From the sequence record OL436245.1: a stretch of DNA of 64,000 nt; one strand, 5' to 3'. Under the pieces are notes generated by a model that saw only the letters and a list, made by a program, of their open reading frames with translations, did not search any database and was not told the origin of the DNA. The position numbers were made by a program, and so were the translations under genes. The stretch is from Staphylococcus phage vB_SurM-PSU4. This document shows, piece after piece, positions 34,782 through 61,976 of the stretch (the stretch's first letter is position 1; the number at the start of each line of letters is the position of its first letter).

Positions 34782-35575
34782 TTAATCATCTAAAAAGAAT
34801 TCGTTATTGTCTTCATAACTTGTGTTAATGAATACAGAATCAAATTCATTTTCATTATTTTTAATGTATAAGTCTTCTAGACGTGATAGACCAATTCTCG
34901 CATATATACTTGCTTGACTATAATGGTCATCACCTTTTCTCTTGATTACTTGATACATTTCTTCTGTCTTGCTATCTTCTTCATCTCTGATGACCACATT
35001 TTGCCAATGTTTAAGAAGTATAGCTTTATCATTATCATTTTCTTGGTAAATTCTTATTCTACCTGTTTTTAAATCTTGGATATAAATTTTGTTCTGCATC
35101 AATTTATCTACAGTAACAATATTTGAATTCTCGTTAAACACAGGTTTAATTTGTCCAGTAGATTTAGGAGATGATTTGTAAGTACAACCAAACACAATAT
35201 CTTCACCGAAGTATTGTTGGAGTCTTAGTAAGTTGTTTCCTGAATCTCCTGTATCTGCTACAATAATATCTGGGTTATACTTAGAAAATTCTACACGTAT
35301 TTTTTCTATATCCGATTCAACCATGTTAGGGTTTTTATTTCGTTTAACATTAAATAACCTAATGAGGTCTATCTTACCATCTTCAGTCATTCCATGAATT
35401 GTACAATAATGAATATTACCCCAATCCACTGATGCTGCGATAAATTTATAATCCCCTCTATTAAACATTTGTTTCTTAGCAATAGGAGATTGGTTGTTGT
35501 AAATATCTTCTTGTAATACTTTCATCTTCTGGTCTTCGTATGGAAACGTTACTACCGTCACTTTCGTGATATTTA
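34782..35575 (-). CDS. terL: terminase large subunit, last exon (C-terminal nuclease domain)
   Basis: IAASVDWGN ... IIVADTGDSGNN ... KGDDHYSQASIYARIG resemble the RNase H-like nuclease motifs of large terminases (Asp strand, DDxxxAxxxA tail); the 5' boundary is set by intron core 35581-35708. Confidence 0.6.
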
Positions 35576-36115
35576 TATACGGACTAGACTATATCATATT
35601 CCTTATTTTTGACTAAGGAATCTCTACTTTACAGGTCGTTAACCTTCTCTTATAGTTCTACCTTACCTCATTTAGTAAGTTACCTATAAACTTAGTCGTT
35701 AGGCATTTATCTACTTTGTAGAATTTAGCAATTGATTGCCCTCATCTTTACATGTTAGGGGTTTCCAATTTTAGTAGAGTTATTCGATATACATTACTGT
35801 ATAAAGGGGCTATCCCGCTAACCCAGCGTGTAGTTGTAGAACAATTGAGTTGATTCAGTATTCATTTCTTTTTCTTTTAATTCACTAGCTGAAATCCAAC
35901 ATTTTTTTGTTACGATTGAGTTCGTTATTCTCAACCTTCTATATATCGCTATATAAGTTCAGACTATATCTTTACCTTATCAAATGAGACTTAGGTATCC
36001 TCTGTTTCGTGCTACTTAGCACTACTAATTAGTCGTTGCACGTTCTCTTATTACAAGAGCTTCGCTCATGATTATCTCTAATGAGAGACTTCCCATGAAT
36101 TAAAAGGACTTCACT
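35576..36115 (-). ncRNA. group I intron (ORF-less) in terL; boundaries approximate
   Basis: minus-strand sense has an R-like element aaatgcctaacgactaag (plus 35691-35708) and an S-like element atgatatagtctagtcc (plus 35581-35597), forming P7 gacta/tagtc; no ORF inside. Confidence 0.55.
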
Positions 36116-36118
36116 CTA

Positions 36119-36500
36119 TACATTTCTATATAGAGGGGCTTGGTTAACCGCATTTAGCTGTGAAATAAAATAACCTCTTGTTCCTTTTCCACCTTTAGTT
36201 CTTTCAGGATACTTACAGTGCCATTCTCCGTTATACCATCTATCTAGAAGTTTACCACATTTTTGACAAACAAATTGGTAACTTCCTTCTTGCACTGTTT
36301 TAGCCATTTCGTCAACACCTTCAGGATTGACTAATAGGATATTTCCACTCTTCTCTAAGTTATCTGGGTCATAGTCTTCATAACTCATTTCATTTAAGTA
36401 ATCACAATGTGTACATCTATGACCATAATACCATTGGTCAGATTGCATATAGAGTTTATGAATTCCCATATTTGGAGTCGTCTTCAACATTACTATTTTC
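36119..36500 (-). CDS. terL: terminase large subunit, internal exon (contains Cys-rich zinc-ribbon-like segment)
   Basis: ORF bracketed by two intron cores; HRCTHCDY ... CQKCG ... WHC. Confidence 0.45.
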
Positions 36501-36502
36501 AT

Positions 36503-58577: not shown

Positions 58578-58646
58578 TCTAGTGGAGTACCTAGATTAGG
58601 TACTCCTATTATGAAAAAGTTAAACAAAATAGGAGAGTGAATATAG

Positions 58647-58985
58647 ATGGCAAGTGAAGCTAAACAAAGTATTCACACTGGTAATACCGTCTATCTAATG
58701 GTTAAGGGTAAAATTGTAGGCAGAGCTCAATCAGCTTCAGGTACACGTGAATACGGTACTGAGGGCGTATATGAAATTGGTTCTATCATGCCACAAGAAC
58801 ACGTTTACCTTAGATACGAAGGTACAGTGACAATAGAAAGATTACGAATGAAAAAAGAAAACTTTGCAAAATTAGGATATGCTTCTTTAGGTGAAGAAAT
58901 CCTTAAAAAAGATGTTATCGATATTTTAGTTGTAGATAACTTAACTAAGAGTGTAATCATAGCGTATCATGGTTTAACTAAATAG
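58647..58985 (+). CDS. tail tube protein (112 aa as it stands; 3' end possibly intron-interrupted)
   Basis: small protein right after the sheath with RBS aataggagag; its TAG stop is followed directly by a group-I-like element. Confidence 0.5.
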   Translation: MASEAKQSIHTGNTVYLMVKGKIVGRAQSASGTREYGTEGVYEIGSIMPQEHVYLRYEGTVTIERLRMKKENFAKLGYASLGEEILKKDVIDILVVDNLTKSVIIAYHGLTK

Positions 58986-59364
58986 ACCCCTTGTACAGTG
59001 ATGTGCATTGAATAATACTTTAAATTGCTAGAACACCGTAAAGCTAACTTAACCACATAGGAATTGGAAACGATAAACTAGAAGGTCAGGAAACTAGAAA
59101 AAATAAGTTAGATGGTATATGGTTAAAACCTAAGTACTAATTAATCGGAAATTAGCATCGAAGCTCCTGTAAAATGGAGAACGTTCAACGACTATAATAA
59201 GTGAGTCTTAGTTACAATAAGATTATGGAATAGTCTAGTCCGTATATAAATATTGCGAAAGCAACGGTAGAATCGGTTCAGCGAATAACTATGATGAAGA
59301 GATAAACACGAACGAAATGATAACTGAGAGCATAGAGTTTTCTTATCTTACAGCATTAAATTTC
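58986..59364 (+). ncRNA. group-I-intron-like ribozyme core A (ORF-less)
   Basis: R-like gttcaacgactata (59183-59196) and S-like atagtc (59230-59235) form a P7 pairing; aatcggaa-type internal elements; starts with the motif agaccccttgtacagtgatgtgcattgaataa. Confidence 0.5.
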
Positions 59365-59650
59365 TAGTGCCCTTATACAGTAATGTATATTGAATAAATC
59401 CTCTAATTCAGGGAAACCCTAAACGAAATTAAGACGTAGGCAATCCTGAGCTAAGCCTGTAACATACAGGAAAGTGCAACGACTATCTCTACGGAGAGTA
59501 CGCTCAAGTGAGTGGAAATGGGGATTATCCTATAAAGTATAGGATAGTGATATAGTCTGGACATATATGGAAACATATAGAAGGTTAGGAGTAACGAACC
59601 TAATCGTAACACAATCGCAGATAAAGCATCATAATAATTTAGTATACTTA
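59365..59650 (+). ncRNA. group-I-intron-like ribozyme core B (ORF-less)
   Basis: gggaaaccc (59411-59419), aggcaatcctgagctaagcc (59438-59457; compare T4 td ggcaatcctgagccaagcc), R gtgcaacgactatctc (59474-59489), S atatagtctgg (59550-59560); begins with the same motif agtgcccttatacagtaatgtatattgaataa as core A. Confidence 0.55.
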
Positions 59651-59653
59651 AAC

Positions 59654-59690
59654 CCAACTTTTATTGTTGGGTTTATTTTTTTTTAATTTG
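59654..59690 (+). terminator. rho-independent terminator
   Basis: aaacccaac ttttatt gttgggttt then T10. Confidence 0.65.
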
Positions 59691-59716
59691 CTTTATCAGA
59701 AGCAGTATGTTATAAT
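59688..59716 (+). promoter_or_regulatory. sigma-A-like promoter for the free-standing endonuclease gene
   Basis: TTGCTT 59688-59693, 17-nt spacer, TATAAT 59711-59716; RBS aaggag follows. Confidence 0.5.
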
Positions 59717-59739
59717 ATAAATATAAGGAGATGATATAA

Positions 59740-60675
59740 ATGAAACAAACAAACCAATTTACATTTAATAAAAAAGAAAGTCAGAAGATATGGGAAGAAT
59801 GGTGTATCAATCAGGGGTTAAAACCTTTAGTTACATATGAGAAATCTCAACAACCTTTTTATTTTGAATTTACTTCAGGTAAATTTAAAGGATTAGTAGG
59901 TAAAACATATTGGGCTAGTATAAAAAGAGGTTCAATAATGAGATTGAGTTGCTTAACAGAAGAGAGTAAAAATAAATATATTAAAGAATTAGGTAAAAGT
60001 AAAGGAATAGAAATTATAGAAGACTATAAAGGAGGTAGAAAAATAAAGCATAAGTTTATTTCAATAGATGGAAAATACAAAGGGTGTGAGGGACAAGTAA
60101 CCTTAAATGACTTAGAGAATATGAAATCTATAGATAATAGAAGTTTAACAATTAAAGGTAAAAAACAATATTTTGATTATAAAGCGAAACAAAGAGATTG
60201 TACAATACTAGAATATCCAGAAAATTATAATATAAAAACCAATGAAAAACTAATAGTAGAAGATAACAAAGGATTAAAACATGAGATAATAGTCCAAGAC
60301 TTTTTTGAGAAAAACTCTATATTAGAAGTTTCAAATTTTAGTGAAGGAGAAAAAATAGTTAAAGAAATACTTATAGAAAGAGGTATTGATTTTATCAAAG
60401 AGAAAGGATTTAAAAATAGTAAAGGTATAACACAGAGGTTTGACTTTTATATAGAATTAGGAGAAGAATTATTTGTAATAGAGTATAATGGTTCACAACA
60501 TTATAAAAAAGCAACGGGATACTTTAAAGATACATTAGAAAAAACTCAAAAAAGAGATGAGTTGAAAAGAGAATATTGTAAAAGAAATAATATATATCTT
60601 TTGGAAATACCTTATACTATTAAAGATAAAGAAAGTATAGACAAAGAGATAAAAGAATTTTTAGACCTAGATTAA
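59740..60675 (+). CDS. free-standing endonuclease, third paralog of the Vsr/DUF559-like family
   Basis: C-terminus FDFYIELGEELFVIEYNGSQHYKKATGYF ... NIYLLEIPY aligns with 36562..37455 and 38065..39048; has its own promoter, RBS and terminator. Confidence 0.6.
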   Translation: MKQTNQFTFNKKESQKIWEEWCINQGLKPLVTYEKSQQPFYFEFTSGKFKGLVGKTYWASIKRGSIMRLSCLTEESKNKYIKELGKSKGIEIIEDYKGGRKIKHKFISIDGKYKGCEGQVTLNDLENMKSIDNRSLTIKGKKQYFDYKAKQRDCTILEYPENYNIKTNEKLIVEDNKGLKHEIIVQDFFEKNSILEVSNFSEGEKIVKEILIERGIDFIKEKGFKNSKGITQRFDFYIELGEELFVIEYNGSQHYKKATGYFKDTLEKTQKRDELKREYCKRNNIYLLEIPYTIKDKESIDKEIKEFLDLD

Positions 60676-60697
60676 TTTCTAGGTCTTTTTTTTTATT
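60663..60697 (+). terminator. rho-independent terminator
   Basis: agacctag...ctaggtct then T10. Confidence 0.65.
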
Positions 60698-60826: not shown

Positions 60827-61384
60827 ATGGCTGAAGAAAATAAAAAAGATTTATCTGAAATGACCGAAGAAGAGATAGATGAATTAAAATATAAAAAAGA
60901 TACTAAAGAAACAGAAGATAAAACAGAAGATAAAAAAGAAGAATCTAAAGAAGAGGATTCTAAAGAAAAAGAAGAAAAACAAAAACCTGTTTCTGAAATG
61001 ACTAAAGAAGAAATAGAAGAACTAAAATACAAACAAGAACAAGAAAAACAAAAAGTATTGGATAAAGTTATTAGGGGATATAATGATACGTTCATTAAAC
61101 ATTATGACTTTAGAGAATTAGGTTTAACATTCACAATTAAATTACACTTACCTAATATGATTGAACAAGGTCAAATTAATGCTCTACGCTCTAAATATCT
61201 TGGAGGTACGGATGTAGACCAACCTGCATATATTTATTATGCTTTTGAAATGTTAGCTACAATTCAAGTTGTAGGTGATGACGTTCCTAAGTATTTCAAG
61301 AATGAAGAAGACGTGTATAACCCTGCTCCATTAATTCAAATGTATAATGATTGGATGGAATTTCAATCAACCTTTCGTTACTAG
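60827..61384 (+). CDS. tail assembly chaperone-like protein (Glu/Lys-rich N-terminus)
   Basis: RBS aagaggagaaag; sits two genes upstream of the tape measure. Confidence 0.5.
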   Translation: MAEENKKDLSEMTEEEIDELKYKKDTKETEDKTEDKKEESKEEDSKEKEEKQKPVSEMTKEEIEELKYKQEQEKQKVLDKVIRGYNDTFIKHYDFRELGLTFTIKLHLPNMIEQGQINALRSKYLGGTDVDQPAYIYYAFEMLATIQVVGDDVPKYFKNEEDVYNPAPLIQMYNDWMEFQSTFRY

Positions 61385-61976
61385 AAGAGATATACAAGAA
61401 TTAGGTGGTATGAAGCATGTTGCGAAGAATAACTATGGACGTAACATGTGGAGAATCATGGATAAGTTCCAAGTACTACCTACAGATGAAAGATTCCAAA
61501 ATCTATCTCCTGACCAAATAGAGTACATATTTGCTAATATGGAAATGGATATGAAAGAACAACAAAGAATGGCTAAAGGACTTAAAAACACAGTTGAAGA
61601 TGATGATGATTCATGGTGGAATGAAGATTCTGAAACGTTTGACCCATTACGTGAAGACCATGATGAAGACGATTTAGCTAAACAAGTAGATGCTTTACTT
61701 TCTGAAACAGAAAGACGTAAGAAAGCAGAACGTATTAAAGCAGACGATTACTCAGAAGAAGAACAAGAAATGATTAAACAAAACCATCAAGATGAAGTTA
61801 GAGATTATATTAATAAACAACTCGAAGAACTTGATGATGAAGTAAGCAATGGAAAAACTAAAGAAGAAAAACCTTCTACAACAGTTCCAGAAGATATGAC
61901 TAAAGATGATTTAGAAAGTGCAATAAGCTTATTCAATGGTACAGAAGAAGAGACGGATGATTTCTTCGATATTTAA
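61347..61976 (+). CDS. overlapping +1-frame ORF, possible frameshift extension of the chaperone
   Basis: 38-nt overlap with 60827..61384 in the +1 frame; no good RBS of its own; acidic C-terminus. Confidence 0.4.
   Translation: MIGWNFNQPFVTRRDIQELGGMKHVAKNNYGRNMWRIMDKFQVLPTDERFQNLSPDQIEYIFANMEMDMKEQQRMAKGLKNTVEDDDDSWWNEDSETFDPLREDHDEDDLAKQVDALLSETERRKKAERIKADDYSEEEQEMIKQNHQDEVRDYINKQLEELDDEVSNGKTKEEKPSTTVPEDMTKDDLESAISLFNGTEEETDDFFDI

Follow-up and report, generated by a model that had tools for sequence, protein, structure and literature searches.

This study concerns the tail tube gene of Staphylococcus phage vB_SurM-PSU4, and the nuclease gene that follows it, in a stretch of 64,000 nucleotides (nt) from sequence record OL436245.1 (referred to here as the window; positions are numbered from its first letter). 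We find that the tube gene of this Baoshanvirus-like Staphylococcus myovirus is very probably made up of three exons, split by a pair of group I introns, predicted to be self-splicing, that contain no open reading frame (ORF). The introns, termed A and B in the order of transcription, are recognised here by their boundaries, by a conserved core, by covariation and by the conserved protein that is restored when they are taken out. The features of the locus are collected in Table 1.

Two ORF-less group I introns had been proposed at this position in an earlier note on the same DNA, and a scan of positions 58600-59800 with the Rfam group I intron model RF00028 (gathering score 50) bore this out. 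Two plus-strand matches were obtained, one at 59347-59580 with 95.5 bits (E 4.5e-25) and one at 58965-59257 with 33.2 bits (E 2e-6); the latter falls under the gathering score, which has to be counted against an intron at the upstream site. The two group I cores are real, far beyond what chance would give. The motifs that had been quoted were all found at or beside the positions claimed for them: core B contains gggaaaccc (59411-59419), aggcaatcctgagctaagcc (59438-59457), gtgcaacgactatc (59474-59487) and atatagtctgg (59550-59560), and core A contains gttcaacgactata (59183-59196) and aatagtctagtcc (59229-59241). The 30-nt stretches that follow the in-frame TAG of each intron (58986-59015 and 59368-59397) are indeed similar, with 24 of 30 positions identical, not 23 as had been counted.

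It can be seen that both elements have the hallmarks of group I introns. The minimum-free-energy folds form both P1 helices, and each helix carries the splice-site U.G wobble. In intron A, positions 58971-58976 (GGUU/UA, the slash marking the splice site) pair with 58983-58988 (UAGACC), bringing U58974 opposite G58985, and in intron B positions 59353-59358 (GCAU/UA) pair with 59365-59370 (UAGUGC), bringing U59356 opposite G59367. Each intron ends in an omega G (G59275 and G59617, respectively) and its removal restores the reading frame, and the conserved catalytic core P3-P8, including a P7 formed from the R and S elements, is present in both. An in-frame stop codon lies at 58983-58985 in intron A, three codons into the intron, and at 59365-59367 in intron B. 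These TAG triplets had been taken as the splice junctions; each instead lies 11 nt downstream of the true 5' splice site and belongs to the 3' strand of P1, the internal guide sequence.

The boundaries were established by comparison with phages JDF86 and K. Exon 1 is 96% identical to the JDF86 gene, which is unbroken at the intron A site. JDF86 lacks intron A precisely, such that the window carries an exact 301-nt insertion after which coding resumes at 59276. When the TmpA protein of phage K was used as a tblastn query its residues 1-109 matched exon 1, and the product of exon 2 corresponds to residues 110-136 in JDF86 and phage K. Exon 2 differs from JDF86 at 14 of 81 nt, and as all 14 differences are synonymous and none is non-synonymous we conclude that exon 2 is translated and is under protein-coding selection. 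Phage K has neither intron, and its C-terminus reads ...TASDKART, compared with ...TASDKAS for the spliced protein; joining U59356 to C59618 gives a C-terminus of ...EFSYLTASDKAS, for which the phage K counterpart is ...EFSYLTASDKART. The alignments with JDF86 and phage K thus place the introns at 58975-59275 and 59357-59617, where core spans of 58986-59364 and 59365-59650 had been suggested.

The three exons sum to a coding sequence of 328 + 81 + 17 nt, that is 426 nt encoding 141 amino acids (aa). This agrees with the earlier suggestion, supported by the comparison with JDF86 and phage K, that the true C-terminus of the tube protein is produced by splicing. The 141-aa protein aligns over residues 1-140 to PDB entry 8q01, the 142-aa tail tube protein of phage 812/K, with an E-value of 2e-77. 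The predicted spliced junctions are CATGGTT/GTTCAGC for intron A and ACAGCAT/CAGATAAAG for intron B, and the predicted protein contains ...AYHGCSANN... and ...LTASDKAS, with the peptides YHGCSANNYDEEINTNEMITESIEFSYLTASDK.

Intron B is 84% identical to intron I2 of the Twort gene orf142 and 79% identical to I3. Introns of the Twort orf142 type are reported to belong to subgroup IA2, and the P7.1/P7.2 region of this Twort type was found in intron B only, as a 31-nt insert after ACGACUA in the cmscan alignment. The splice sites of intron B, CAGCAU/ and AAUCG/CAGAUAAAGC, are shared with Twort orf142-I3, where the 3' site reads AAU(C/U)G followed by CAGAUAAAGC. When the same boundary logic was applied to Twort it gave a 23-nt exon 3, equal to the published length (PMC10136302). 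Guanosine-dependent self-splicing has been published for the Twort orf142 introns, and by analogy with these close relatives of intron B the introns described here would be catalytically self-splicing.

Intron A aligned poorly to the Twort-type introns in MAFFT and was hence analysed with its own family, which comprised nine members: one from the window, two from phiIPLA-RODI (both of its introns) and six from four loci of IMG/VR. From this alignment RNAalifold predicted 68 pairs, 32 of which were changed on both sides (compensatory), and it recovered P2, P4, P5 together with its extension, P7, P8 and P9. The guide sequence tracks the exon within the family, GGUUUA being paired with UAGACC here and CCUUUA with UAGAGG at another insertion site. 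Structurally, intron A is of a different type from intron B: its P5 carries a long extension and a P7.1/P7.2 insert is absent, and only its P1-P2 region resembles that of B.

Splicing would be expected to follow the group I pathway. In the late transcript each intron would fold and pair the end of the upstream exon with its own guide sequence to form P1, with U.G at the splice site; exogenous guanosine would cleave after U58974 in the case of intron A and after U59356 in the case of intron B; the freed exon end would attack after the terminal G (G59275 or G59617), and the ligated message would be translated into the full 141-aa tube protein. Ribosomes on unspliced RNA would be halted by the in-frame TAG inside each intron. 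These TAGs account for the annotated 112-aa ORF here (58647-58985 if unspliced) and for the 139-aa ORF ending ...LNF in JDF86. The tube C-termini given in GenBank are short or wrong in several relatives (loci L002, 2548-2886; L001, 2548-2967; and L003, 2518-2856, in our survey): Golestan101-M and phiIPLA-RODI are each credited with 112 aa, and JDF86 with 139 aa and the LNF end. We conclude that they were misannotated because the introns went unrecognised.

Two other layouts of the gene have to be weighed. One, which is that of the earlier note, places both cores in tandem immediately behind the stop codon of a 112-aa gene, leaves no room for an exon between them and puts any C-terminal exon beyond 59650. 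The 112-aa ORF does end at TAG 58983-58985 and a TAG does precede each core; however, by comparison with JDF86 and phage K, residues 110-136 are encoded by 59276-59356 and the last residues by 59618-59634, so that an 81-nt exon separates the introns and a 17-nt exon follows intron B, while no tube sequence is encoded after 59650 and the TAGs pair with exon bases in P1. This layout is scarcely credible. In the other, core B would remain unspliced, being either a dead intron or a structured element of the 3' untranslated region, and the protein would end ...SYLTALNF as in JDF86 (139 aa). The GenBank annotation of JDF86 does read through to LNF followed by the stop codon, and just five residues depend on intron B. 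Against this, the core is complete and has the 95.5-bit score, 253 of 260 aligned nt of intron B are conserved in JDF86, and removal of the intron recreates SDKAS, which matches the SDKART, SDKASR and SDKA ends of intron-less and other relatives. In addition, Twort orf142-I3 uses the same site and the same splice-site sequences, and its splicing is published (PMC10136302). We therefore regard an unspliced core B as very improbable.

With a length of exactly 27 codons, exon 2 could be skipped without loss of the reading frame: exon 1 joined straight to exon 3 would give a 114-aa protein ending ...AYHGSDKAS. Such skipping may yield a tube variant, as a side possibility; that introns A and B differ in guide sequence argues against efficient skipping.

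Table 1. Positions of the tail tube exons, the introns and the downstream features in the window.
Feature	Position	Strand	Details
Tail tube exon 1	58647..58974	+	codons 1-109 and base 1 of codon 110; ends in U58974, the intron A 5' splice site
Group I intron A	58975..59275	+	301 nt, no ORF; from RF00028 and JDF86 alignment
Tail tube exon 2	59276..59356	+	81 nt; from base 2 of codon 110 to base 1 of codon 137; encodes CSANNYDEEINTNEMITESIEFSYLTA
Group I intron B	59357..59617	+	261 nt, no ORF; from RF00028, phage K comparison and Twort identity
Tail tube exon 3	59618..59634	+	17 nt, CA GAT AAA GCA TCA TAA; stop codon 59632-59634
Intrinsic terminator after tube gene	59649..59685	+	10-bp stem 59649-59675, then T-run
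Probable promoter and ribosome-binding site of nuclease gene	59708..59730	+	extended -10 TGtTATAAT 59708-59716; AAGGAG 59725-59730; read from sequence
Free-standing nuclease gene	59740..60675	+	311 aa; PHROG matches, AlphaFold2 model
Second terminator	60663..60695	+	overlaps last codons of nuclease ORF; counterpart directly follows tube gene in JDF86 and Twort

On its sequence the phage is Baoshanvirus-like and not a Kayvirus, the genus referred to in the earlier note: in a megablast search of phage genomes the window was approximately 95-98% identical to the Baoshanvirus Golestan101-M and to RSM-J51Sa. Six Baoshanvirus-like phages have an identical protein over codons 110-130. At the nucleotide level the version of these codons shared by the window and Golestan101-M is 75-81% identical to that of the others, compared with 95-98% for exon 1 across the same phages. 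The recoded version of exon 2 is confined to the three phages that have intron A and the nuclease gene (the window, Golestan101-M and RSM-J51Sa), and when we searched for a donor lineage of the recoded exon only these three carrier phages came up. A similar pattern is seen when Fi200W is compared with phage K, in that 325 of 327 positions are identical before codon 110, followed by 20/27, 31/36 and 23/27. Such synonymous tracts, starting at intron sites, are the trace that would be expected of co-conversion during homing at the DNA level.

The gene that follows the tube gene had been described as a promoter-equipped, free-standing endonuclease gene, and this is consistent with what we find. 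With exon 3 and a terminator ahead of it, the ORF is free-standing and not intron-encoded; it is outside the introns, has its own extended -10 element and ribosome-binding site, and its presence varies among close relatives, the gene being found in Golestan101-M, Silviavirus and Twort and being lacking in JDF86 and phage K. A consensus promoter scan did not list its promoter, and the -35 hexamer is poor. The 112-aa ORF, the terminator and the ORF at 59740-60675 that had been reported all exist, the terminator being a stem at 59649-59675 plus a T-run. Together the nuclease ORF and this first terminator form a segment of approximately 1 kb between the tube stop codon and the terminator of the JDF86 and Twort type. 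We had considered whether TTTTAGACCTAGATTAA, which is shared with JDF86, was a remnant of the nuclease ORF left by a deletion in JDF86, and dropped this idea as in Twort, too, the tube gene is followed at once by this terminator.

The ORF matched the PHROG families phrog_7140 ('intron encoded nuclease', 1e-37), phrog_559 and phrog_9084, with E-values from 1e-37 to 7e-24. The names of the families are intron-encoded nuclease, HNH endonuclease and homing endonuclease, and homologues in the databases are named intron-encoded, homing or VSR endonuclease. A comparison of the sequence with the PDB gave only chance-level aldolase matches. The AlphaFold2 model (mean predicted local distance difference test score, pLDDT, 87.7) has three repeated alpha/beta modules followed by a C-terminal domain, for which the sole Foldseek neighbours were PD-(D/E)XK nucleases, all of them weak (the R2 endonuclease domain, Can2, Bax1, AF1548 and Vsr). 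Comparison of the model with Vsr (1vsr) gave a probability of 0.99 with a target-normalised TM-score of 0.53, a weak match, and residues D235, E248, H254, D273 and K276 are invariant in 17 homologues. We tentatively suggest that the C-terminal domain probably has a PD-(D/E)XK/Vsr-like fold. The three modules that precede this putative catalytic domain, each a helix plus three strands, cover residues of about 11-63, 74-127 and 138-190, and going by the model they are presumably DNA-binding repeats.

We surveyed 80 Herelleviridae tube loci from IMG/VR and eight from GenBank, searching them with intron profiles and six nuclease sequences. Tube-gene introns were found in many Twortvirinae and in some more distant Herelleviridae. 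Exon mapping identified at least eight insertion sites, after residues 109, 113, 115, 118, 125, 130, 134 and 136, and all of the mapped sites lie within the last 28 codons. Up to four introns are present in one tube gene, that of a Silviavirus, and Silviavirus records have four Intron_gpI features annotated in the tube gene. The more distant intron-bearing loci are L075, L077 and L083 (IMG/VR, with a tube protein 61% identical) and L030, L078 and L088. Three distant loci are broken exactly after the residue equivalent to G109, which is the intron A site, and some of the distant intron-bearing loci have a distant nuclease homologue downstream. A homologue of the nuclease of the window sits just downstream of the tube gene in many of the intron-bearing loci. 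Among 69 non-redundant loci, 14 have introns and such a downstream homologue, six have introns only, five have the nuclease homologue only and 44 have neither.

A potential explanation for these patterns is that ORF 59740-60675 encodes a free-standing homing nuclease of the PD-(D/E)XK type that drives trans or collaborative homing of the introns, which we consider plausible and about evenly balanced. Its substrates would be the tube alleles of co-infecting relatives that lack introns or the nuclease gene; with the break repaired from the donor, the nuclease gene would be transferred along with the introns nearby and the exon sequence flanking them. The carrier's own allele would be shielded from cutting by its introns and by the synonymous recoding of exon 2. 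The link between nuclease and introns rests on their association, on a published joint loss and on the recoded exons. Extended to the family, the last 28 codons of the Herelleviridae tube gene could be a contested target of downstream PD-(D/E)XK nucleases, with introns and near-saturated recoding serving as immunity and with nuclease, introns and recoded exon moving as one cassette, a wider proposal that we offer tentatively and with some doubt.

Several observations weigh against the homing explanation. The assignment of the fold is weak, with a best Foldseek E-value against the PDB of 1.2e-3 and nothing below 1e-3, and Pfam gave only a sub-threshold match to DUF2726 (18.6 bits, cut-off 24.7). 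The odds ratio for the co-occurrence of introns and nuclease (20.5, p 1.7e-6), which in itself favours a link, is not corrected for shared ancestry. There are discordant loci, six with introns and no nuclease (JDF86, in which intron B is retained, is one) and five in which the nuclease adjoins an intact tube gene, and as both classes exist neither the introns nor the nuclease strictly needs the other. The recoding of exons beside splice sites could, moreover, partly reflect pairing with the guide sequence. The same discordant loci, together with the weak fold assignment and a putative target, fit an account in which introns and nuclease are independent selfish elements in a permissive spot, the introns being inherited vertically or spread by reverse splicing and the nuclease having its target elsewhere or none at all. 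However, the co-occurrence spans several genera and several nuclease subtypes, and mutants of phage 812 (812a) lost both tube introns and the nuclease gene jointly, all three of which are missing in phage K (PMC6445280). Furthermore, recoded tracts that run from the insertion sites indicate gene conversion at the DNA level and not reverse splicing, and the insertion sites, of which there are at least eight, are concentrated in the 28 codons nearest to the nuclease gene. Independent elements are thus a possibility that we take seriously and yet are inclined to doubt. That the nuclease might be intron-encoded, with intron B extending past the ORF, is suggested by names such as 'Ioh, intron ORF' and 'intron-encoded nuclease' in GenBank and PHROGs; the ORF, however, begins past a terminator, 105 nt beyond the tube stop codon, and downstream of exon 3, JDF86 lacks the ORF but possesses both intron B and exon 3, and no tube-coding sequence follows the ORF, which makes this extremely unlikely.

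Two further group I introns were found in the window, at 35564-35830 and 35939-36157 on the minus strand, with RF00028 scores of 48.8 and 90.8 bits. This pair sits between the minus-strand ORFs 34782-35561 and 36116-36502 and probably marks another split gene, possibly that of the endolysin, a candidate named because 'lysin (x2)' is annotated in relatives where a 24-kb query matched. An Rfam scan of the whole 64,000-nt window at gathering thresholds gave zero matches and missed all four introns of the window. Since the short-range scans gave 95.5 and 90.8 bits, this miss reflects the speed filters applied to long input and not absence. Such filters conceal AT-rich phage group I introns, and this concerns any pipeline that uses the long-input mode. 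After the nuclease gene, ORFs 60827-61384 and 61347-61976 overlap by 38 nt; their positions are those of genes that relatives annotate as encoding tail morphogenetic or tape-measure chaperone proteins, for which phage K has an annotated frameshift product.

Truncated tube annotations of the kind described here are passed on to protein databases and to phylogenies for which the tube protein serves as marker, and the tube tree was the odd one out in a paper on Herelleviridae taxonomy (PMC7409376). The tube locus also offers a compact natural system for the joint travel of free-standing nucleases and ORF-less introns, as it brings together several introns, at least eight insertion sites within 28 codons, exons that are recoded and a family of linked nucleases. 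An arrangement of this kind is already known, from Twort in 1999 and from kayviruses between 2012 and 2019.

Introns I1-I3 of Twort orf142 are said to have been described by Landthaler and Shub in 1999, and the crystal structure of the I2 ribozyme was reportedly determined by Golden et al. in 2005. The gene orf142 is the tail tube gene and has three group I introns (PMC11878797), and the introns, together with exon skipping involving I2 and I3, were described in 1999 (PMC10136302, PMC11878797). The earlier note knew of no introns in structural tail genes of Kayvirus; Twort orf142 (PMC11878797), the kayviruses (PMC6445280) and the annotation of Fi200W all precede the present case. The window resembles Twort in that the host gene is the same, intron B occupies the I3 insertion site, the introns are ORF-less with short exons between them, and a nuclease gene follows the tube gene, the Twort protein ORF018 being 39% identical to the nuclease of the window over the shared domain. 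It differs in having two introns rather than three, in that the intron A site (after G109) is unused in Twort, in that intron A is of another structural type, and in that the 311-aa nuclease lacks the C-terminal extension of ORF018. As the guide sequences of the two introns in the window differ, exon skipping of the Twort I2/I3 type is less expected here.

The introns of Kayvirus tmpA and the 'Ioh' nuclease were reportedly described by Lobocka et al. in 2012. In the GenBank records of Fi200W and P4W, tmpA is given as a three-piece join that is followed by 'Ioh, intron ORF'. In kayviruses 812, A3R, 676Z, Fi200W and P4W the tube gene contains two non-coding introns and has a nuclease gene beside it (PMC6445280). 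The likeness to the window is considerable: a three-exon tube gene, ORF-less introns, a nuclease directly downstream and flanking exons that are synonymously recoded, the whole being polymorphic among close relatives and lost as a unit. However, the Fi200W introns lie after T118 and E130 whereas those of the window lie after G109 and A136, the genus differs, and the nucleases are only approximately 40% identical over a 100-aa core.

A nuclease that cuts at the intron insertion site brings about collaborative homing, and one that cuts merely nearby brings about trans homing. Among the collaborative systems we take the endonuclease of the cyanophage psbA site to be F-CphI of S-PM2, and the second system to be that of T3 gene 5.3 and PhiI I-TslI. 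Collaborative homing has been described for two phage systems, in one of which the insertion site of a cyanophage psbA intron is targeted by a free-standing endonuclease (PMC3984707), and trans homing has been shown for T4 mobE with the nrdB intron (PMC2790892). Aeh1, which had been put forward as the precedent for collaborative homing, is a different case, as its mobE is a gene-splitting insertion in nrdA (PMC2988022). What the window shares with these systems is a conserved phage gene that holds a (functionally) ORF-less group I intron, with a free-standing nuclease gene next to the intron, and in them the two are co-inherited (PMC3984707, PMC2790892, PMC2988022). The nucleases there are Endo VII-like or HNH enzymes whereas that of the window is probably of the PD-(D/E)XK type, and a single intron is involved there whereas the tube gene has several introns at several sites. 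The combination of sites seen here, after G109 and after A136, appears to be undescribed in a Baoshanvirus-like phage.

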